Source of the DNA: an uncultured Candidatus Saccharibacteria bacterium
GTDB lineage: Bacteria > Patescibacteriota > Minisyncoccia > Phycocordibacterales > CSBR16-119
NCBI GenBank assembly: GCA_964531475.1
Contig: CAZHCS010000001.1
Coordinates: 112,739-176,738, forward strand
Direction: 5' to 3'
DNA length: 64,000 bases
Shown in pieces: positions 13,221 to 51,317 of this stretch (positions within the stretch are counted from its first letter, which is position 1; each line of letters begins with the position of its first letter). The translations under genes were made by a program, and so were the position numbers. Under the pieces are notes generated by a model that did not search any database, was not told where the DNA came from, and worked only from the letters and a program-made list of their open reading frames with translations.

Positions 13221-13228
13221 GAGGGTAA

Positions 13229-13256
13229 GTTTATAGTTTTTAGGTTATAGTTTATA
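13229..13256. repeat. TTATAGTTTTTAG-type spacer motif, copy A
   Basis: tttatagtttttaggttatagtttatag lies in the fba-rpiB spacer and is part of a 17-bp stem inverted repeat (aggttatagtttatagt / actataaactataacct). Confidence 0.5.
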
Positions 13257-13297
13257 GTAAAAAATCTATGCACTATAAACTATAACCTATGCACTCG

Positions 13298-19876: not shown

Positions 19877-20800
19877 CTAGCTGTTTAATGCCTTTTGCGC
19901 AAGGGCGAGTGCGCCATCCTTGGATTTGGCGACGCAATAGAACCGGCCATCGTGCGCAAAATATGCATCAGCGACTCCGGAAGCTTTTTGGAAATCCGCT
20001 TCTCGAAGACCCGCCCACTCGGCCGGGAACGGCTTACGGGACTCGAACGTATCAGCAGCTTTCCTGACCGTCTCGATCTTCCATCCGTCGCCTTTGGATT
20101 TCGGATAAACGAAATATAGCGGTTCAGCATGATCCACCAAGACGCGATTCACATCCTGGCGCGAATAGGGTTTGCCGAGGATAATGAGACGCTTGTCTTG
20201 CGCGTTCTGATATTCGGCATAAATATCGCGTTCGGCTTCGACCGACGCTTTGGCATGGACGATCTCACGCGCGATGACGGATTTCGCCCAAGCAACCGCC
20301 GCATTGAACTGCGCGAACTCGCGGCTCTCGTCCTCGTTCCAAGCGAGGTTAAACGCGCCGATGATCCCCGATGCCGAATAAGGAAAGACGCGTTCGATGA
20401 CTTGCTTCGAGATATCCTGTCCGTTGTCGACGGCGTCAAGAGATTGAAAGATTTTCTTGTCGAGGACTTCGGCGATAACAGCATCGCCACCGCACAATTC
20501 CGGGCCGTATGCTTTCCAGACAAGTCCGCAAGCCGCATACATAATACCGTTCTCGCGCATACCAGCACGGCCTTTTTGATGATGGTCGAATCGGCCGCGT
20601 GCCGGGTCGTAAACCCCGCCAACATCGAACACGAAGTCCGCACGCTCTATAGTCTCTTGATCGCGCGTGCGGACTATTTCGTACCGCTCGCCTTTTGCAT
20701 CGAAATGCATTTCTAAGATCGCGCAAGCGAACACATCGTCGGCATGAAAGCCTGAGTCGTGGGTGACAAGAATTTTCTTTTTTGCCAGGAAGCTAAACAT
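19877..20800 (-). CDS. MYG1/UPF0160-family metal-dependent hydrolase
   Basis: The N-terminal THDSGFHADDVFA motif is characteristic of the MYG1 family. Confidence 0.7.
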   Translation of the reverse strand: MFSFLAKKKILVTHDSGFHADDVFACAILEMHFDAKGERYEIVRTRDQETIERADFVFDVGGVYDPARGRFDHHQKGRAGMRENGIMYAACGLVWKAYGPELCGGDAVIAEVLDKKIFQSLDAVDNGQDISKQVIERVFPYSASGIIGAFNLAWNEDESREFAQFNAAVAWAKSVIAREIVHAKASVEAERDIYAEYQNAQDKRLIILGKPYSRQDVNRVLVDHAEPLYFVYPKSKGDGWKIETVRKAADTFESRKPFPAEWAGLREADFQKASGVADAYFAHDGRFYCVAKSKDGALALAQKALNS

Positions 20801-21147
20801 TAGTCTTCTTTGTTCTTGCCGAACATGCTGCCGATCCAGTTGAACACCGACACAACAAGAGAGCCGAAAAGCGCCGCGGTGAATGTATCAACGTCCATAC
20901 CCGGCACGATTCCCGAGACGAACCAGAAGAAGAGCGCGTTCAAAACAACAAGGAAGATACCGAGAGTAATGATGGTAATAGGTAGTGTCAGGATGCGGAT
21001 GATTGGCTTGACGATGAACTGAACGACAGTGAGAAGCGCGCCGGCGATAACAATCGTTAACCAGCCATCAGTGTGGACACCGGCAACGAGATAATCGGCC
21101 AAGAAGACCGCGACCGAAAGTAATATGAGTCGTATGAGTAATTTCAT
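20800..21147 (-). CDS. DUF360/holin-4-like small membrane protein
   Basis: 115 aa with 3-4 TM segments. Its start codon lies directly against the inverted-repeat element at 21148. Confidence 0.55.
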   Translation of the reverse strand: MKLLIRLILLSVAVFLADYLVAGVHTDGWLTIVIAGALLTVVQFIVKPIIRILTLPITIITLGIFLVVLNALFFWFVSGIVPGMDVDTFTAALFGSLVVSVFNWIGSMFGKNKED

Positions 21148-21256
21148 CCCGTTAGAAGCAGGTCGCGGTCTTTCCGCTCCATGCTTGGTTATTATTTTTA
21201 ATCATAAACATAATTTTAGCATAGTTTAAAGATTCGTGACCGCGGCTTCTAACGGG
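21148..21256. repeat. CCCGTTAG-TIR palindromic element, copy 1
   Basis: Arms cccgttagaagcaggtcgcggtc / gaccgcggcttctaacggg with an AT-rich core. Flanks are TTCAT on the left and ATTCATG on the right. Confidence 0.65.
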
Positions 21257-21271
21257 ATTCATGTCAATAAT

Positions 21272-21727
21272 CTATGCGAATAATTGATCGACTGCGTTCT
21301 TGACGTCAGCGCCGTCAGCCTTGCCCTTCAAGTCTTTCATAAGCGCACCGACGAGCATTCCCTTTTTCGAAGCGTCGGTGATGCCAAGCTCGGCTTTCTT
21401 CGCTTCGGCGAGTTTCTGTACTTCTTCAAACGGCATCATTTCCGGCAAGAATTCCGTGAGAATGACGAGTTCTTTCTCTTCTGATTCTGCAAGCTCAGGC
21501 CGGCCGCCGTCGATGAACTGCTTGATCGATTCTTTGCGCTGCTTTGAAAGACGCGTGATGACTGCCAGCGCTTCCTCGTCAGTAAGCATATCCTGGGGCG
21601 TACGCTTCGTCGCGACGAGCTCGTTCGTGAACGCCGTCGAGATGCCGCGCATGACCAGAACCCGGCTTTCGTCCTTGGCTTTCATAGCCGCCATAATTCC
21701 CCCTTTGATTTGTTCGTGAAGTGTCAT
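21272..21727 (-). CDS. yqeY: GatB/YqeY-domain protein
   Basis: 151 aa with the typical YqeY pattern. Confidence 0.8.
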   Translation of the reverse strand: MTLHEQIKGGIMAAMKAKDESRVLVMRGISTAFTNELVATKRTPQDMLTDEEALAVITRLSKQRKESIKQFIDGGRPELAESEEKELVILTEFLPEMMPFEEVQKLAEAKKAELGITDASKKGMLVGALMKDLKGKADGADVKNAVDQLFA

Positions 21728-21770: not shown

Positions 21771-23615
21771 TTATTTACGGTAACGGAATATAAATTTCTT
21801 ATCAAAATCCCTAAAAACCTTTTTTGATCCGCCACATGTTTCTACATCGAGGAATCTCTTACCATCTATACACCTTGAATAATAAATTACTTCATAGGGA
21901 TGAACACTAATTGGCTCCATTGCAACCAAAACATTATCTGGTCCATCGTAGTTAATTGCCAAATACGGTCCCATTTCAGCTGGACACATTTCAAGACCTA
22001 ATTCTTTGCAGCTCTCAATAAATTTATCAAAATAAAGATCTTCTTTAATCCCTAATTCTTCAGGAGTGAACCCTACAAGATTATATGTTTCTCTATTTTG
22101 ACTGAATTCTGTTCTGTTTAACGCTACCCTGAATGTATTTACATTATTGTGAATACCTCTTTCTTTTAATTTATATTCGGCTTCCCCAGAGTTTCTAATT
22201 TCTAGATTCGTTTCGAAATCCAATAAGAAGATATTGTCTTTTGGAAATCGCTTATACATGTGCTCAATACGAGGATGGTCTTTGATTTTTTTGAAAATGT
22301 CAAAATTCCAGTCTCCAATATAGACCTTCGTATTCTCCTTTATCTCGTCAAGATTATGAGCAATTTGATCTTCTGTACAACCAAAGACGGTCGGTGCGTC
22401 TTCTTCTGGATTTCTTTTACTCAGTAACTCAGAAACTCTCGGATCCTTGTGGTATCCAAATCCCTCAATCGGTGAGTTTAGTTCGTATATAAAGATTAGG
22501 TCTTCTTTTGAAAAAACCTCTCCCTTTTCTTGTTTCTCACAAAGAAGGGTTAGGTATTGCATATCAGCTGATTTCTTTTGATAAACATCAGCCTCACTAC
22601 CGAATTCAGAAAGTTTGTTACTAAGAATCTCTTGCATGGATGATTCAACAGCTTGATTAGGGAGGACGCCCCTTACTTCGGCAATTTTATCTTTTCCTTG
22701 CATACGAATAGCAAGACGAGGCTGTGTTGGTTCACCATTTGAATCATAACTATAGTACACATAGAAATCTCCAGTTTCTATTTGCTGTTTTGCGGTTGAT
22801 TGTCCCGCCGTACACCAGCCTGTTCCTTTACCTTCAAGTGAGGTAAAAAGTTTTTCAGCTTCTCCGTCTTTGCCTTGTTCGTATTTTATCCATTCACCAC
22901 GAAGTTCTTCTTTGTTCTCCATTTGAGCGGCAAGAGACTCTTGGGTCAACTCGGCATACAAATCTGGAAACTTTTTAGAAAAAGCATCTTGTATTTCGGG
23001 TTCTTTGAGATTCTTATTATCAGCTTTTACTTTTTCGTAAATATCAGCTATCTGCGCTAGTGGTTCGCGATAAATATCTGGAAATGGCGCAACAGTAGTT
23101 TTGGTACGCTTTTTATATTCACCACGTTCTTTGTCGAACTGTGAAAGTTTGGTTATATTTTTCCAGACATAATATTTAAACCATGCGGGATAGACAGCAT
23201 CATCCGACGTCAAATAGTCCATCCAAGCGTCGAGAGAAGCTTTCTGGTCTTGAATAGCTACTTCTTTCATTTGATTGCGAGTTTCTTCTGGAATTACTTC
23301 AACAGCCTGCCCTCGCTCTCGAGCAATTTTTTGTTGGAGTTCAAAATAGCTTTCGGGGAAATTTTCTTCTTTTATAATCAAAGAGTCGTATATCTTTGAT
23401 CGGAAAAGTTCTAGATTTCTTTTTCTAGTTTCTTGGTCTTCATTAAGAAATATATTTTCTAGACGTTCGGCGTAAGCTTCAATGCGATTGGAAGGGTCAT
23501 TTGGAATACTTTCACCGGATTCTTTTTCTTTTCTAGAAACAGCCCTTTTAACTTCTGGAGAAGTCTGAAGTTCTGGATTTTTCATATGTAGCGGATGTTT
23601 TTCCATACCCAGCAT
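21771..23615 (-). CDS. Large hypothetical protein (614 aa) in a low-GC segment
   Basis: The ORF is clearly AT-richer than its neighbours. No motif recognised. A leaderless-type -10 (TAAAAT) lies 7 nt upstream. Confidence 0.55.
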   Translation of the reverse strand: MLGMEKHPLHMKNPELQTSPEVKRAVSRKEKESGESIPNDPSNRIEAYAERLENIFLNEDQETRKRNLELFRSKIYDSLIIKEENFPESYFELQQKIARERGQAVEVIPEETRNQMKEVAIQDQKASLDAWMDYLTSDDAVYPAWFKYYVWKNITKLSQFDKERGEYKKRTKTTVAPFPDIYREPLAQIADIYEKVKADNKNLKEPEIQDAFSKKFPDLYAELTQESLAAQMENKEELRGEWIKYEQGKDGEAEKLFTSLEGKGTGWCTAGQSTAKQQIETGDFYVYYSYDSNGEPTQPRLAIRMQGKDKIAEVRGVLPNQAVESSMQEILSNKLSEFGSEADVYQKKSADMQYLTLLCEKQEKGEVFSKEDLIFIYELNSPIEGFGYHKDPRVSELLSKRNPEEDAPTVFGCTEDQIAHNLDEIKENTKVYIGDWNFDIFKKIKDHPRIEHMYKRFPKDNIFLLDFETNLEIRNSGEAEYKLKERGIHNNVNTFRVALNRTEFSQNRETYNLVGFTPEELGIKEDLYFDKFIESCKELGLEMCPAEMGPYLAINYDGPDNVLVAMEPISVHPYEVIYYSRCIDGKRFLDVETCGGSKKVFRDFDKKFIFRYRK

Positions 23616-24364: not shown

Positions 24365-24370
24365 TATAGT

Positions 24371-24574
24371 GTGGCAAAACAATGCCGCATGAGACTATTC
24401 GTACTCACGTTCTTGTTCATGGCGTTCGTGCTTCGCGACTGGCTAATAGAGCCTGCTGCATGGTGGCAACTCTTTGCCGGAGCCTACGTTGCTTTTGTGG
24501 TGGCGCTTATCGTCTGGATACTCGATGGTGTCTACCACGCCAGACGTGACCCCAAAAGCAAATACGCTACCTGA
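24371..24574 (+). CDS. Small membrane protein
   Basis: Two hydrophobic helices, followed by a strong terminator. The start may be the internal ATG at 24389. Confidence 0.45.
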   Translation: MAKQCRMRLFVLTFLFMAFVLRDWLIEPAAWWQLFAGAYVAFVVALIVWILDGVYHARRDPKSKYAT

Positions 24575-24578
24575 CCTT

Positions 24579-24606
24579 TAGGCCCCCGAAATGGGGGCCT
24601 TTGGTA
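24579..24606 (+). terminator. Rho-independent terminator
   Basis: aggcccccgaaatgggggcct hairpin followed by ttggt. Confidence 0.6.
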
Positions 24607-24629
24607 TGTGCTAAAATATTGTCATGAAT

Positions 24630-24745
24630 CCCGTTAGAGATGTTTCGGTTTAGTATTTAATGGGAATCATGATTTTTTATGGTCGTTAATCACTTAGAAA
24701 AAAATAGCCTAGGTACGCAAACCAAAGTTTGCTATCTCTAACGGG
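24630..24745. repeat. CCCGTTAG-TIR palindromic element, copy 2 (degenerate)
   Basis: 12-bp arms cccgttagagat / atctctaacggg. The right end abuts the rmuC ATG. Confidence 0.5.
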
Positions 24746-25774
24746 ATGAACGCAATCATCTACGGCATCATCGGTCTCGTTGTCGGACTTATTCTCGTCC
24801 GGCTTTTCCAGTCGCGTAAAAAGTCTGACGACGGCGCGCCGCTTTTCAAAATGCTTGCCGACGAGATGAAAGACCTGCGCCGCACAATGGACGAAAAACT
24901 CCACCAGTCCAACGAATCTATCCGCTACCAGTCGAGCGAATCACAGCGCCTCATCAAAGAGATCACGCGCGAAATAACCGAAGTCAAAGAGACGGGCCGA
25001 CAAGTCATGGGCTTCACCGACCAACTCCAGCAGCTTCAGAATATGCTAAAGAATCCAAAAAGCCGCGGCGTACTCGGCGAGTATTACCTCGAGACACTTT
25101 TAAAAAATACGCTACCGCCTGGCTCGTACCAGATGCAGTATCCTTTTCAAAATGGCGAGATCGTCGACGCGGCAGTCTTTGTCAAAGACAAAATTATTCC
25201 CGTTGATTCAAAATTCTCTCTCGAAAATTATAATCGTATTACCGATGCTGCTGATCCGTCGGAGCGCGATCGCTTGGAAAAACTATTCTTGAACGATTTG
25301 AAAAATCGCATAGTCGAAACAGCCAAATACATCCGTCCGGAACTAAATACGATGGATTTCGCGTTCATGTTCATTCCCCACGAAGCGATTTATTATGATT
25401 TGCTCGTAAACAAGATCGGCGCGATCGGCGAAGATACTGAAAACCTCATCCAACGCGCAGCATCCAAGTACCGAGTCATCATCGTCTCACCGACCAGCTT
25501 CCTCGCGTACCTGCAGACTGTGCTCCAGGGACTCAAAGCTTTGCAGATCGAAGAATCCGCCAAAGAAATCCAGAAGCGTGTCGGCGAGCTAGGCAAGCAT
25601 TTGAAGTCTTACGAGGACTACCACAACAAACTCGGTCGCAATCTTTCGACAGTCGTGAACCAGTACGAACTTTCTGGCAAAGAACTCAAGAAGATCGACA
25701 AAGACGTCTATCGCATCTCTGGCGAAACTGTCGGCTTGGAGCCGCTCGAAATCGAAAAGCCTCGCGAAGACTAG
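24746..25774 (+). CDS. rmuC: DNA recombination protein RmuC
   Basis: N-terminal TM segment and coiled coil, plus the RmuC core (...DFAFMFIPHEAIY...). Confidence 0.8.
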   Translation: MNAIIYGIIGLVVGLILVRLFQSRKKSDDGAPLFKMLADEMKDLRRTMDEKLHQSNESIRYQSSESQRLIKEITREITEVKETGRQVMGFTDQLQQLQNMLKNPKSRGVLGEYYLETLLKNTLPPGSYQMQYPFQNGEIVDAAVFVKDKIIPVDSKFSLENYNRITDAADPSERDRLEKLFLNDLKNRIVETAKYIRPELNTMDFAFMFIPHEAIYYDLLVNKIGAIGEDTENLIQRAASKYRVIIVSPTSFLAYLQTVLQGLKALQIEESAKEIQKRVGELGKHLKSYEDYHNKLGRNLSTVVNQYELSGKELKKIDKDVYRISGETVGLEPLEIEKPRED

Positions 25775-27550: not shown

Positions 27551-29044
27551 ATGAACTTTATAAACCTATTATCAATACTAGAATCAAAAAATAATTTATC
27601 GGATGATTTATTTAATAAGTACTTAGAATACCTAAACGTCAATCTTGAAGATAACGAAACAGGAGATCTATTAAAATTGACAGAAAGGTTATTTGGAGAA
27701 TATCAAAGTTCAGATATCTTTGATGGGTACTATATTGGATACAAAATACCGCAGATATCAAAAGAGTTTGATTTACTAAGAATCACAAAAAATTCGGTTA
27801 TTAATATTGAATTAAAATCTGGTGCGAGTGAAGAAAGTGTAAAAAAACAGTTAATACAAAATAAATATTATCTTGATTCTCTGAGGAAAGAGAAAATTTA
27901 TAATATTACATATAAATCAAACGAAGATAAGCTTTATATTCTTGATAGGAAGAAAGAGTTATGTGAGTTAGAAGTAAAAGACTTACTAGAAATTTTATTG
28001 ATGGATCCTCCCATAAAAGAGGATTTGGATTCATTATTTGATCCGTCTGAATTTCTTGTATCACCTTTCAATAATACCGATAAGTTTATAAAGGATGAGT
28101 ATTTTTTGACAGACCATCAAATAAAAATTAAGAAGTCTATAATAGAGACAATCGCGAAAAATGAGTTTAGCTCTTACGCTATCTCTGGTAAAGCAGGTAC
28201 AGGAAAAACTTTACTCGTGTATGACATAGCGAAGGAAGTGATGTCTATTGCGAATAAAGTGCTAATCGTTCATTGTGGAAAATTAAATAACGGACATATT
28301 AAGTTACGGGATGAGCATAACTTCGATTTAATTCCGATAAGTGCTTTTACAGAGCAAAGAGTTAAAATGAACTACAGTTTAATTATCTTTGATGAAGCCC
28401 AAAGAATTCGTTCGAGACAATTGACTGTAATTTTAAATAATAAAGGAAAATTTAATTACTTATTTAGTTACGATAAAACCCAAACACTAAGTCTTAGAGA
28501 TGGTAAGCATGGTCTTAAAACTGCCGCTGAATTATATGAGGGAATAAAAAACCATTTTGAATTATCTGAAAATATAAGAACGAATAAAGAAATTGCCTCT
28601 TTCATCAAAAGATTTGTTGACAAAAGTGACAACGTATCCCGAAGAGAATATAAAAATATTACAATACAATACTTTCAGCACATAAATAATGTCACTAGTT
28701 ACGTAAGAAATCTTGAAGATAATGGATGGGTTTATGTAAGTTATACTCCCCAAATGTTCGGGAGTCCGATATATGAAAAATACAATACAATTTCTAAATC
28801 ATTACAAAATGCTCATGATGTTATAGGACAAGAGTTTGATGACGTTGTTGTGATTGTTGGAGAAAAATTTCTGTATAAAGAAACGGGCGAATTAACTCAT
28901 CAGATAAACGGCCCATATATGCCACACAAAATGCTCTTTCAAGCCATGACTAGGGTGAGAAAAAAACTTAAAATAATTATAGTCAATAATCCTGAAATTT
29001 TAGAAAGATGTATAGAGATATTAAGTCCACCTAAAAAAGCATAG
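27551..29044 (+). CDS. PD-(D/E)xK-like nuclease + SF1/DUF2075-like P-loop NTPase (defense-island candidate)
   Basis: Walker A ISGKAGTGKT, Walker B IIFDEAQRI and a motif-VI-like QAMTRVRKKLKII. The N-terminal domain has D..(12)..ELK. The region is very AT-rich (roughly 30% GC by eye) and sits directly 3' of tRNA-Glu. Confidence 0.65.
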   Translation: MNFINLLSILESKNNLSDDLFNKYLEYLNVNLEDNETGDLLKLTERLFGEYQSSDIFDGYYIGYKIPQISKEFDLLRITKNSVINIELKSGASEESVKKQLIQNKYYLDSLRKEKIYNITYKSNEDKLYILDRKKELCELEVKDLLEILLMDPPIKEDLDSLFDPSEFLVSPFNNTDKFIKDEYFLTDHQIKIKKSIIETIAKNEFSSYAISGKAGTGKTLLVYDIAKEVMSIANKVLIVHCGKLNNGHIKLRDEHNFDLIPISAFTEQRVKMNYSLIIFDEAQRIRSRQLTVILNNKGKFNYLFSYDKTQTLSLRDGKHGLKTAAELYEGIKNHFELSENIRTNKEIASFIKRFVDKSDNVSRREYKNITIQYFQHINNVTSYVRNLEDNGWVYVSYTPQMFGSPIYEKYNTISKSLQNAHDVIGQEFDDVVVIVGEKFLYKETGELTHQINGPYMPHKMLFQAMTRVRKKLKIIIVNNPEILERCIEILSPPKKA

Positions 29045-48037: not shown

Positions 48038-49411
48038 TTATTCGACGAAGCGCCCGACGAGCGTGTCACCTTCGGAGACACCCGTTACTACCTCGACCAT
48101 ACCATCCGAACCCTTGAGACCGACAACAACCGGGACATTTGTTTCTTCGTCGTCACGCAAAATAGTAACAGACGAACCAGAGTCATCTGTTGTGATAAAG
48201 CGCTGTGGCACGCGAAGAGTATTAATCACTTTTGATTTTTCTATAGAAACAGCGGCCGTCATGCCAGAACGAATACGTTCGTCTTCTTGCGAGAATAATA
48301 CTTTGGCACGATACATAGATACACCATCGACTTCTGTCTCTCCAGGATCGATAGAAGCAAGAGTGCCCGGGAAAATGGTTTCGCCATATGCGTCTAGAGT
48401 TATTGACGCAGGAAGACCAGGGATCAAGTTCACAATATCAGACTCCGGAACCTCTACAGAAACCTCGTATCCGCCAGAGGCTATGACGCCAGTGACAACT
48501 GTGCCTATTTCTGCCTGTTCACCGATTTTAATGTCGAGCCTAGAAACCGTACCAGCAAAAGGCGCTCTTATCGTGCGTTCGTTGAGTCGCGCCATTATGC
48601 GAGCAACGCCGGCCTCTGCTTGTTTTATTCGAGCCATGGATATTTCACGAGAGATATTGCCCTGGTCCGCGGCATCACGACTAGCAAGAGCCTTTTCGTA
48701 TGCGTTTAAGTTTTCGACGTAGAATTCTGATTCGACATTAGGTATATCTATCAACCAAACATCCGTGAGCGAAGTGTCTTCTTTGGTAAAAGACAGATAG
48801 AGCCCTTTGGTTCCAAGAGCTATCGGCTTATAAAAATTTATCTCGGCGAAACCAGTTTCAAGACCGGTGTATCTTATCTTTAGACGTGAAGCGCCACCGG
48901 AAGACTCTATTTCTATGCGGTATTGACCCTCGTCTGCACCGCGATAACTACCTGAAACAGTAGGAGGCTCATTGTCGTTGTCTGTGTCGCGCGAATAGGC
49001 TTCCAATCCTTCAGAGAGAAGTTTGGCACGGGCACTTGCAACATCTGTATCGGTTTCTGCATCAGAAACTTTCGCCTCGGCGCGAGCAAGGTCAAGTGTC
49101 GCCTGTGCATCCTGTAGCTCGGCATACAATGTTGCATTGTCGAGTTCGACGATTTTTCCCCCAGCAACAACTGTGTCGCCGGCTTTCTTGTAGATGCGAG
49201 CCACAGTGCCAGATTCGGAAAATGCCATATCAGCGCCTTGCACCGGCTGCGCTTCGCCGTTTAGTACCAACATGTCTACGACATCGCCGCGCTCGACAGT
49301 AAACGTCGAAGTCTGGTCGTCTTTCTTGCCACCGGCAATGAGAAGAATAAGAATAAGCGCGACTGCGCCAATGATCAATTTCTTTTTGTGTTTGGTCCAA
49401 AATGCTTTCAT
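48038..49411 (-). CDS. HlyD/MacA-family periplasmic adaptor
   Basis: TM segment, coiled coil, then lipoyl and beta-barrel pattern. The ATG at 49411 is preferred over the track's start, which lies inside the IR element. Confidence 0.8.
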   Translation of the reverse strand: MKAFWTKHKKKLIIGAVALILILLIAGGKKDDQTSTFTVERGDVVDMLVLNGEAQPVQGADMAFSESGTVARIYKKAGDTVVAGGKIVELDNATLYAELQDAQATLDLARAEAKVSDAETDTDVASARAKLLSEGLEAYSRDTDNDNEPPTVSGSYRGADEGQYRIEIESSGGASRLKIRYTGLETGFAEINFYKPIALGTKGLYLSFTKEDTSLTDVWLIDIPNVESEFYVENLNAYEKALASRDAADQGNISREISMARIKQAEAGVARIMARLNERTIRAPFAGTVSRLDIKIGEQAEIGTVVTGVIASGGYEVSVEVPESDIVNLIPGLPASITLDAYGETIFPGTLASIDPGETEVDGVSMYRAKVLFSQEDERIRSGMTAAVSIEKSKVINTLRVPQRFITTDDSGSSVTILRDDEETNVPVVVGLKGSDGMVEVVTGVSEGDTLVGRFVE

Positions 49412-49491
49412 CCCGTTAGTGACAGGTCGCGCTCTCACGTGCCTGATAATTTAGATTTGTAATATCCCGAGCGACCACGGTCACTAACGGG
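49412..49491. repeat. CCCGTTAG-TIR palindromic element, copy 3
   Basis: Arms cccgttagtgacaggtcgcgc / gcgaccacggtcactaacggg. The left end abuts the HlyD-like gene ATG. Confidence 0.65.
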
Positions 49492-49557
49492 ATTCATGGC
49501 AACATAATAACATGAAAACGTCCGATTTAGAAGACTGTTTTTTCAATTAAAACAAGA

Positions 49558-49582
49558 ACGCCGCCCCTCGTGGGACGGCGTT
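49558..49582 (-). terminator. Terminator
   Basis: The hairpin acgccgcccc..gggacggcgt is followed on the minus strand by ttcttgttttaatt. Confidence 0.5.
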
Positions 49583-50705: not shown

Positions 50706-51194
50706 CTATTTGAACATAATAGTCATTTCTGCCGCATCATCGAACTGGGATTCGCCGGATGGATTGTCCTTCTGAAAGATAAGCGTACCGCGTTCGCCAT
50801 AGGCCGGTTTTACAAATGTAAGAGTCCCCGAGAACGGCACGTAATCTGTCGTCATCCATTCGCCCTCTGCCATCACATATCCTTCGGCAATAATGAGACC
50901 GTCCCAGTCGGTCAGCGTAACCGGCGCAGAAGCTTCGAAGAACCAATTACCCGGCGCGCGTCCGCGAATAACGAGCGGATTTTCGATACTGTCGCCATCT
51001 TTCAAGTTTTCGACATATATCTTGATCCCGCGAATACTCGTTAGCTCGGTTTCAACTGGAGCCGCAGGAACGGTTGGCGACGGATCCAAGACGACTGGTG
51101 TTTCGGTAGGATGATTTATCTTATTCAACACAACAACAACCAAGATCGCTCCGACTATTACGATAAGTATATTTTTCATAAGATTCCACTGCAT
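50706..51194 (-). CDS. Secreted hypothetical protein
   Basis: The ATG at 51194 lies directly against IR element copy 4. An alternative start is MKNILIV at 51179. It has a TM segment/signal and a beta-rich domain. Confidence 0.5.
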   Translation of the reverse strand: MQWNLMKNILIVIVGAILVVVVLNKINHPTETPVVLDPSPTVPAAPVETELTSIRGIKIYVENLKDGDSIENPLVIRGRAPGNWFFEASAPVTLTDWDGLIIAEGYVMAEGEWMTTDYVPFSGTLTFVKPAYGERGTLIFQKDNPSGESQFDDAAEMTIMFK

Positions 51195-51308
51195 CCCGTT
51201 AGAGACAGGTCGCGGTGATCCCGCGATATGCCTTGATAATGTTTATAATTTTTATATTATTAATCATTGCAGATTTTCCAGAATTTAGCGACCGCGGTCT
51301 CTAACGGG
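51195..51308. repeat. CCCGTTAG-TIR palindromic element, copy 4
   Basis: Arms cccgttagagacaggtcgcggtg / agcgaccgcggtctctaacggg with an AT-rich core. Flanks are TGCAT on the left and ATGCAT on the right. Confidence 0.65.
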
Positions 51309-51317
51309 ATGCATAGA

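Follow-up and report, generated by a model that had tools for sequence, protein, structure and literature searches.

An inverted-repeat element abuts the start codon of an adaptor gene

We analysed a 64,000-nucleotide stretch of DNA from an uncultured Candidatus Saccharibacteria bacterium (assembly GCA_964531475.1, contig CAZHCS010000001.1, positions 112,739 to 176,738 of the forward strand; hereafter the window), and in particular a palindromic element at the start of a gene for an HlyD/MFP-type periplasmic adaptor (Table 1). Since an intrinsic terminator of the upstream gene precedes it, the adaptor gene is the first gene of its transcript. The core of the element, CCCGTTAGTGAC…GTCACTAACGGG, occupies exactly 49412-49491, where the initial annotation had placed an inverted repeat, and the element spans 49410-49493 when its terminal AT dinucleotides are included. 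CCCGTTAGTGAC sits at 49412-49423, with its complement at 49480-49491, and this 12-mer with its one-mismatch variants gives four matches in the window against 0.15 expected. The two arms are 25 nt long and 80% complementary. Relative to shuffled sequence the RNA fold has a z-score of -4.4, and those of the other copies in the window range from -4.5 to -8.2.

The open reading frame (ORF) track begins the adaptor at a GTG (49438-49436), which adds the residues MRARPVTNG. We found that 13 homologues, 51-99% identical to the adaptor, begin with MKAFWTKHKKK, MKSFWNKHKKK, M…NWKKL and the like, and that MRARPVTNG is conserved in none of them. The homologues thus place the adaptor start at the ATG at 49411, as the initial annotation had proposed, and leave the longer N-terminus unsupported. 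That ATG had also been described as lying outside the element; its first two bases are, however, the AT that ends the repeat, and with its G a target-site duplication begins. The GTG, which had been assigned to one of the arms, does lie inside the element but 2 nt past the inner edge of the gene-proximal arm.

The sequence CCCGTTAG occurs eight times in the window against 1.09 expected, and these occurrences form four elements, every one abutting the ATG of a gene. No degenerate extra ends were found in the window at 0-1 mismatch. Read in gene orientation, all four copies have the form ATG(A/C)-ATCCCGTTAG…CTAACGGGAT-G(A/C)…, so that the gene's ATG straddles the right-hand end. The copies are 84-120 bp long, and the ends ATCCCGTTAG and CTAACGGGAT are identical in four of four. 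Copy 4 abuts the ATG at 51194 in the same way, as had been noted before; the gene there begins MQWNLMKN and its orthologue in locus L124 begins MEWNTMKNIII.

Table 1. Coordinates of the element copies and of the features at the adaptor gene (positions in the window)
Feature	Position	Strand	Remarks
Copy 3, palindromic element with terminal AT dinucleotides	49410..49493	-	non-coding; MITE-like derivative (MITE, miniature inverted-repeat transposable element)
Gene-distal arm of copy 3 (5' arm in mRNA sense), ATCCCGTTAGTGACCGTGGTCGCTC	49469..49493	-	fold has a 3-nt versus 1-nt internal loop
Gene-proximal arm of copy 3 (3' arm in mRNA sense), ends …CTAACGGGAT	49410..49434	-	TAA 4 nt before the ATG; donates A and T of the gene's start codon
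Original adaptor start codon, now start of an upstream ORF (uORF)	49495..49497	-	from empty-site alignment; ATGA together with 49494; upstream GA copy 49494-49495
Regenerated adaptor start codon (element-end AT plus duplication G)	49409..49411	-	downstream GA copy 49408-49409
Extended -10 box TGTTATTAT, 6 nt 5' of the original ATG	49504..49512	-	read from sequence; genome-wide pattern
uORF MNPVSDRGRSGYYKSKLSGT (then stop), original ATG through 5' arm and loop	49435..49497	-	from translation; 20 codons; stop TGA 49437-49435, 24 nt 5' of the adaptor ATG
GTG start of the ORF track	49436..49438	-	adaptor frame; overlap with the uORF stop (GUGA)
HlyD/MFP-type periplasmic adaptor gene, 457 aa	48038..49411	-	followed by FtsX-type permease and ABC ATPase genes
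Intrinsic terminator of the gene upstream of the adaptor	49557..49582	-	
Copy 1	21146..21258	-	original ATG 21260-21262; regenerated ATG 21145-21147 of holin-like gene 20800-21147; uORF 21152-21262, 36 codons, reads through the whole element to a TAA 4 nt before the regenerated ATG
Copy 2	24628..24747	+	original ATG 24624-24626 after TGCTAAAAT-N6; regenerated ATG 24746-24748 of rmuC; internal ORF 24679-24741, 20 codons, ends at a TAA 4 nt 5' of the regenerated ATG
Copy 4	51193..51310	-	original ATG 51312-51314, 3 nt past the TAA of the SIMPL gene; GC duplication at 51311-51312 and 51191-51192; regenerated ATG 51192-51194 of Gmad2-domain gene 50706-51194; internal ORF 51199-51267, 22 codons, ends at a TAA 4 nt 5' of the ATG

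The element is a mobile insertion that rebuilds the start codon

Copy 3 is absent at the orthologous sites in loci L121, L124, L125 and L127 and present in L126. The empty sites read …TGTTATTATgccgacATGAAAGCATTTTGG in L127 (adaptor 76% identical), …TACTATgctgccATGAAAGCA in L121 (85%) and …TGGTAATATgccgacATGAAATCA in L124 (65%); in L126, where the adaptor is 99% identical, the element is in place, and the window reads …TGTTATTATgttgccATGA(ATCCCG…CGGGAT)GAAAGCATTTTGG. The empty sites thus have the form …TATTAT-N6-ATGAAAGCA, and the filled site is ATGA(ATCCCGTTAG…CTAACGGGAT)GAAAGCA. Comparison of the two shows that GA was duplicated and that the upstream ATG is the original start of the gene.

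The other copies have empty counterparts as well: TAATCATTTTTTATGAAATTACTC for copy 1 in L130, where RmuC is 98% identical, TGATAAAATaaaccttATGAACGG for copy 2 in L132, and an empty site for copy 4 in L124. Against the empty sites ATGAAAGCA, ATGAAATTA, ATGAACGG and ATGGAATGG the duplications are GA or GC. In loci L045 and L087 copies stand in tandem, the second element having been inserted at the ATG rebuilt by the first.

The element is therefore a mobile insertion placed directly after ATG N with a 2-bp duplication (GN). The original start codon remains upstream with its initiation signals, and the new ATG consists of the element's terminal AT and the duplicated G, which leaves the encoded protein unchanged. 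Mobility, with its empty sites, and the survival of the original start codon as the start of a uORF go beyond the initial annotation. Its view that the elements shape the leaders of the genes holds; the claim that they shape the N-termini does not, since insertion restores the same ATG and second codon.

The flanks of two of these sites vary between strains. At the copy 1 site a spacer of 9 nt separates the yqeY stop from the original ATG (window 21259-21275) and differs from L130 4587-4600, reading TAA TCATTTTTT ATG in the window and TAG ATTATTGAC ATG in the empty locus. The change makes a -10-like TAGATT 6 nt before the ATG, and could be a post-insertion adaptation or an allele brought in by recombination. 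The first eight codons of rmuC and the region upstream (window 24365-24770) are mosaic across strains. RmuC begins MNAIIYGI in the window and MNGIFYGI in L132, both with a small membrane ORF upstream; in L130 and L131 it begins MNQWVFLV after a different upstream sequence, the remaining protein being 98% identical.

Copies in other genomes follow the same start-codon rule

We scanned one genome per species for ATCCCGTTAG-N70-100-CTAACGGGAT (genome set, at least 120 contigs) and made a second, independent scan of metagenomes for shorter copies with N40-69 (metagenome set); the counts below are among the matches listed. Neither pattern contains the G of the ATG, and both require the 10-nt ends, so the identity of the ends outside the window is set by the search. 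The two scans yielded at least about 260 copies besides those of the window, under the same start-codon rule. In the genome set, which includes the window copies, 130 of 137 have an ATG on exactly the ORF-continuing side. In 102 copies the upstream triplet is ATG and in 3 it is GTG; 100 of the 130 have an exact 2-bp duplication. The base after the upstream triplet covaries with the base after the gene's ATG (A-A 88, G-G 13, C-C 3, T-T 3). Similarly, 115 of 131 metagenome copies lie at an ATG, with upstream ATG in 88, GTG in 6 and TTG in 3, and the duplication matches in 97 of 115. The seven genome-set copies away from an ATG keep 2-bp repeats with AT beside at least one of them, which suggests that the target is AT-NN-AT.

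The hosts in the genome set are nearly all Patescibacteria (Saccharibacteria, Paceibacteria, Nomura-, Kaiser-, Levy-, Yanofsky- and Campbellbacteria and others). [quoted passage not shown] Viral contigs gave only two matches, so phages are no obvious reservoir.

Genes of every kind lie downstream, among them topA, glyS, clpP, ssb, pheT, dnaN, dnaJ, rpmJ, rplI, adk, ppa, def and secG. The tie to envelope and efflux genes proposed from the window thus fails elsewhere, where the elements precede topA, glyS, clpP, ssb, pheT, dnaN, dnaJ and ribosomal protein genes. Some downstream families recur (clpP, pheT, topA, rmuC, glyS, ssb), with unrelated interiors. We considered insertion hot-spots and rejected them, as a rough estimate puts the recurrence near chance (about 12 pairs expected with about 700 shared gene families).

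The stem varies as DNA repeats do

Beyond the invariant 10 nt, positions 11-14 of the stem vary with compensation; 95.3% of cells are paired and the stem is about 14 bp long. We counted 111 double-sided changes against 41.5±5.3 in shuffles, and 0 of 500 shuffles reached that number. Mismatches of the G·T type are as common as those of the A·C type, and folding favours the sense strand over the antisense strand only marginally (-35.5 versus -34.3 kcal/mol). The complementarity therefore looks DNA-like, as in the repeats of mobile elements, rather than RNA-like. The interior keeps a consistent orientation relative to the gene, which a position-weight model called correctly in 101 of 130 copies. 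At gathering scores Rfam matched two tRNAs only in the window and left the element unmatched; permissive Rfam searches returned only generic miRNA-hairpin matches of 16-19 bits against cutoffs of 74-100.

Two rival explanations concern a regulatory or a processing role. In the first, the element would not be mobile DNA but a conserved operator or cis-regulatory RNA, for instance a thermosensor, a riboswitch-like structure or a repressor site. The 10-nt ends identical across phyla, the covarying stem and the partial sequestration of the gene's AUG are what such a structure might show. The empty sites, target duplications, strain polymorphism and tandem insertions are not, and the interior is variable, has no Rfam match and stands before functionally unrelated genes. 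We consider this explanation extremely improbable. The second is that the stem is an RNA-processing site, at which an RNase III-like cut at the base would yield a new leaderless mRNA beginning at the regenerated AUG. The host relies on 5'-terminal AUGs (see below), long perfect stems are substrates of RNase III, and Correia elements in Neisseria are processed by that enzyme. However, RNase III cleaves within stems and not at the last pair, and the stem has no sense-specific tolerance of G·U pairs: GT and AC mismatches have the same frequency and the gap between the strands is about 1.2 kcal/mol. A processing site would also leave the enrichment of uORF frames described below unexplained, and we regard it as quite unlikely.

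Longer elements with the same ends encode a GIY-YIG nuclease

An orphan-end analysis of the first 120 loci found no autonomous partner; the partner surfaced in a search of all 252 fetched loci for pairs of repeats separated by up to 6 kb. Three elements of 274-278 bp (L144, L177 and L222) have the same ends and an 86-aa ORF, and all three ORFs match the GIY-YIG domain PF01541 (E 4e-14 to 1.8e-17). The full-length form is about 276-282 bp, with 14-16-bp terminal inverted repeats ATCCCGTTAGAG…CTCTAACGGGAT and a wall-to-wall ORF for an 86-95-aa GIY-YIG nuclease. A profile search gave at least 7,930 homologous clusters at E ≤ 1e-8, typically 86 or 95 aa long. Their public annotation is 'GIY-YIG nuclease family protein' or 'putative endonuclease' only.

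The nuclease ORF is fitted to the repeats and to the host gene. In most of 31 fetched sequences the C-terminus is …KNRLKRFL(S/T)LTG, which is encoded by the 3' repeat (TTC CTA TCT CTA ACG GGA TGA). About one third of the 31 begin MNPVR…, as the 95-aa forms do; these residues come from the host ATG-A and the 5' repeat read in frame. The ORF often starts at the host's original ATG, and its terminal TGA overlaps the rebuilt ATG. In L253, for example, the arrangement is TGGTAGAAT-N6-ATGA(ATCCCGTTAGAGAT…282 bp…ATCTCTAACGGGAT)GAATACT, where the TGA of the nuclease overlaps the ATG of the host gene. The repeat of L256 is a compensated variant, ATCACG…CGTGAT. Remnants of the nuclease persist in short copies: L069 encodes MNPV..SAFYYVYVLQNKVGEFYTGCTEDL (E 1.7e-6), and L057 matches at E 1.5e-4. 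Because the ends are shared with the GIY-YIG element and short copies hold remnants of its ORF, we read the window copies as its coding-less derivatives.

The nuclease proteins are most similar to UPF0213 proteins and more weakly to SLX1. The closest solved structures by sequence are BH0048 (1zg2, E 1.8e-10) and EF2693 (1ywl), both UPF0213, followed by SLX1 (7cq2, E 5e-4). The group I intron endonuclease family TIGR01453 scored 17-24 bits against a cutoff of 56, below a match.

Other small GIY-YIG ORFs in the loci (L002, L103, L146, L155, L217, L248) have no flanking terminal repeats. Those of L002, L103 and L248 adjoin tRNA-like sequence and are probably intron-borne; intron-borne endonucleases in tRNA genes of Patescibacteria are described in PMC13011429. 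In L261-L270, at a RhuM/Fic … DUF1016 locus, a full-length GIY-YIG element has the ends AC…GT and not AT…AT. A hairpin copy lies 17 nt downstream of it and there is no obvious start-codon site; the ends vary, and possibly the target too.

Translation would be handed back to the host gene

In the window, TANNNT stands 5-8 nt upstream of 21 of 66 first ATGs, against 3.3±1.8 for random ATGs, and usually has a TGn extension; the apparent leaderless pattern is TGnTAnAAT 6-7 nt before the ATG. Shine-Dalgarno-like motifs precede 1 of 66 first ATGs against 3.4 at random, and neighbouring genes on the same strand are mostly 0-4 nt apart or overlapping. Among the 119 genome-set copies with an identifiable original start, a -10 box lies upstream in 40 and a Shine-Dalgarno-like motif in 8. 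In a host whose mRNAs appear leaderless and which has next to no Shine-Dalgarno sites, we therefore expect ribosome loading at the original ATG. At the adaptor gene we read TGTTATTAT as a leaderless-type promoter, which is kept at the empty sites (L121, L124 and L127 among them); a two-hexamer scan there found no full -35/-10 promoter.

We found that frames through the element tend to end at the gene's ATG. For uORFs that run from the original ATG across the entire element, with shuffles as expectation, ends at the TAA in the 3' repeat 4 nt before the gene's ATG (TAA(-7)) number 21 of 39 against 4.9±2.1 in the genome set and 19 of 32 against 7.2±2.1 in the metagenome set. Ends at the TGA of ATGA (TGA(+1)) number 11 of 43 against 4.2±1.8 and 17 of 32 against 7.0±2.1, respectively. 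Fusions in frame, without a stop, stay nearer expectation (2 of 23 against 2.0; 16 of 33 against 12.3±2.3). Internal ATG-ORFs of at least 10 codons behave similarly in the genome set: 45 end at the TAA 4 nt before the ATG against 13.2±3.3 in shuffles, 25 at the TGA overlapping the ATG against 15.5, and 8 are in frame with the gene against 15.4. We also applied a simple relay model that lets ribosomes restart within -12 to +20 nt of a stop; 58 of 105 copies lead to the gene's ATG under this model, against 36±4.7 when shuffled.

Where the hosts do use Shine-Dalgarno sites, the element itself can supply one: the 3' arm carries GAGG or GGAGG 9-11 nt before the ATG in 5 of 10 copies on contigs labelled as non-CPR and in 5 of 120 others; the motif is present in 5 of 6 copies from Planctomycetes and Omnitrophota. 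The element thus seems to have adapted to particular hosts. In L046, L057, L059, L063 and L068 (Planctomycetes/Omnitrophota) and in the viral copy L129 3734-3829, the 3' arm holds GAGG, GGAGG or AAGGAGG and the 5' arm the complement.

From the frame enrichment, the Shine-Dalgarno motifs of the 3' arm and the nuclease ORF that ends in ATGA, we infer that termination and reinitiation hand the ribosome back to the host gene. Ribosomes would start at the original ATG, either at the 5' end of a leaderless mRNA or just past the stop of an upstream gene, and would go on translating inside the element, along the nuclease ORF where the copy is full-length and along a short uORF where it is a hairpin. 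They would stop at the TAA in the 3' repeat or at the TGA of ATGA, and the gene would then be reinitiated. At copy 3 the uORF stops at GUGA, 24 nt upstream, so reinitiation would have to reach the ATG or take the GTG. As this stop overlaps the in-frame GTG, a minor adaptor isoform extended by nine residues is conceivable from GTG 49438 by reinitiation.

As to mobility, the nuclease may mobilise hairpin copies in trans by 2-nt staggered cuts at AT-NN-AT junctions. GIY-YIG homing enzymes such as I-TevI produce 3' overhangs of 2 nt, and a duplication of 2 bp would agree with that. The affinity to SLX1 suggests that the predicted nuclease may recognise junction or cruciform geometry at the element ends. 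The bias to start codons could arise on the side of the element, which without signals of its own would need a host start codon for expression, and on the side of the host, which would tolerate an insertion only if it rebuilds the ATG; the element may also have an intrinsic preference for ATGNA as a target. We regard this reading as a whole as probable: the hairpin would be a MITE-like derivative of a tiny selfish GIY-YIG element, with insertion at start codons, termination-reinitiation and nuclease-driven mobility.

The excess of frames ending at the gene's ATG also bears on the idea that the hairpin is skipped and not translated. The stem would loop out, and the ribosome would slide or hop from the original ATG to the identical ATGN at the 3' base, much as in the bypassing of T4 gene 60 or with the ribosome-binding sites of T4 genes 25 and 38, which are split. 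The identical ATGN flank a highly stable stem, closed immediately at both codons, and in some 40% of copies no ORF path leads to the gene's ATG. For an undecoded interior, however, neither the enrichment of frames ending by that ATG nor the lack of enrichment of in-frame fusions would be expected; the frame counts point to decoding of the gap in many copies. The matching N is accounted for by the target duplication, and the full-length elements, to judge from their ORFs, would plainly be translated across. We think skipping unlikely. An outward promoter of the element's own, driving the downstream gene or a leaderless mini-ORF, seems to us very improbable. The AT-rich interior has -10-like boxes in some copies, such as TGCTAAAAT in copy 1, yet these are not enriched 5-8 nt upstream of coupled internal ATGs (10 of 66, against 20 of 134 for other internal ATGs), and TCTAACGGG, the invariant stretch that precedes the gene's ATG, does not form a -10 box.

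Several observations weigh against the termination-reinitiation and nuclease reading. The copies without a continuous ORF path to the gene's ATG count against it as well, and the copy 3 uORF stops early. A hairpin of -37 to -53 kcal/mol that begins at +5 should make it hard for ribosomes to load on a leaderless mRNA, except where translation is co-transcriptional. The excess of open frames could be partly inherited from the ancestral wall-to-wall nuclease ORF and not selected. The duplication, mostly 2 bp, is occasionally 1 or 3 bp, and the start-codon bias (about 90% of copies, and not other AT-NN-AT sites) is explained by selection arguments alone. Finally, tblastn with the nuclease found no GIY-YIG gene in the 64-kb window.

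Relation to known elements

The window copies resemble MITEs: they are small and lack the nuclease ORF, share terminal repeats, have duplications and empty sites, and have a longer coding relative with the same ends. That relative does not encode a canonical transposase, and the nuclease has a putative role in mobility. A MITE of a DDE-family transposon was rejected on the identity of this coding partner. REP/REPIN elements (RAYT/Y1) were also rejected: they have a GT(A/G)G head and no duplication is expected of them, whereas here the duplication is present and the partner that shares the ends is GIY-YIG and not Y1. Integron attC sites were rejected too: they lie in cassette arrays with their core sites in the order RYYYAAC … GTTRRRY, the polarity here (GTTAGAR … YTCTAAC) is the opposite, and the copies are scattered in both orientations at housekeeping genes.

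Correia/NEMIS elements of Neisseria, ERIC and RUP are like the element in their size of about 80-150 bp, terminal inverted repeats, short duplication, many copies and lack of a transposase, and are likewise co-transcribed with neighbouring genes as long hairpins. They differ in that TA is duplicated, in their intergenic position and in their origin from, or mobilisation by, DDE-type insertion sequences. Here GN after the ATG is duplicated, the start codon is rebuilt, and the ends are shared with a GIY-YIG gene.

Free-standing GIY-YIG homing endonuclease genes (T4 seg, the I-TevI family) are selfish genes whose sole product is a GIY-YIG nuclease. Such enzymes have large DNA-binding domains, and their genes have no terminal inverted repeats or duplication and copy into the cognate allele. 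The element, in contrast, has repeats and duplications, encodes a bare 86-aa domain and occurs at many unrelated genes; the outcome of insertion is many unrelated sites, each with a 2-bp duplication. The GIY-YIG domain is present in the full-length relatives and not in the window copies, and the I-TevI-type family is unmatched. Among solved structures, the nuclease matches small UPF0213/YhbQ-type GIY-YIG proteins and SLX1 best by sequence. SLX1 cleaves junction DNA as a structure-specific endonuclease, an activity suited to an element that can fold into a cruciform. The genes for these proteins are ordinary chromosomal genes, and we know of no description of them as mobile or bounded by inverted repeats.

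MIRUs are small intercistronic repeats whose short ORFs overlap the flanking stop and start codons, overlaps thought to keep translational coupling intact. Unlike the element they are tandem direct repeats in operons, lack terminal inverted repeats and have no relative that encodes a nuclease. The palindromic elements of Rickettsia and the T4 gene 60 bypass insert are mobile inserts in expressed sequence that are tolerated through decoding, the former because they are translated in frame. Both lie within coding regions and are translated into the host protein or bypassed, whereas the element lies between the start codon and codon 2 and the ribosome would be returned to the rebuilt start. The gene 60 insert and its relatives are treated in a preprint (bioRxiv 10.1101/2022.08.31.505936).

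Full-text literature searches found no description of the element. GIY-YIG genes were mentioned only as horizontally transferred from Patescibacteria (PMC12455944). The element is kin to known kinds, the MITE and the selfish nuclease gene, with a substantial chance of a new minimal transposon class. In its full form this proposal holds that the hairpins are coding-less offspring of an undescribed minimal class of DNA transposon, with a bare 86-aa GIY-YIG nuclease as sole enzyme, insertion at AT-GN-A, a borrowed start and a ribosome returned by the overlap of stop and start. We hold it tentatively, as a real possibility that we lean slightly against.

Other features of the window

The 614-aa ORF at 21771-23615 (-) has no Pfam match and lies in a stretch with a GC content of 0.40. 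It is absent between the yqeY and RNase T-like genes in the related contigs L130, L131 and L132, and so looks like a strain-specific inserted gene. The 497-aa ORF at 27551-29044 (+) has a Schlafen-group-3/PIF1-like helicase domain and lies in a region with a GC content of 0.38, within a low-GC stretch at 28-30 kb; the region may be a defence or mobile island. Two inverted repeats are unrelated to the element, one at 2576-2646 (21-nt arms, 95% complementarity) and one at 13228-13289 (18-nt perfect arms, rich in TATAAACT).

Implications

The element sets a trap for the annotation of CPR genomes. Gene callers extend ORFs into it, as at GTG 49438, and thousands of 86-95-aa 'GIY-YIG nuclease family proteins' are called while the bounded mobile units on host start codons are overlooked. 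Between closely related contigs (adaptor or RmuC 98-99% identical) the elements serve as presence/absence markers.

To our knowledge, the mechanisms of translation start in Patescibacteria are essentially unstudied. For this group the element provides a natural system in which leaderless initiation and termination-reinitiation can be tested. If our reading is true, the full-length form, at about 280 bp, would be among the smallest autonomous mobile elements known, and would be driven by a nuclease family not known to drive the transposition of elements with terminal inverted repeats. Start-codon capture, regeneration of the ATG and translational hand-back would together form an unusual safe-haven strategy, by which even essential genes of gene-dense, Shine-Dalgarno-less CPR genomes could be colonised and the element could cross into other phyla.

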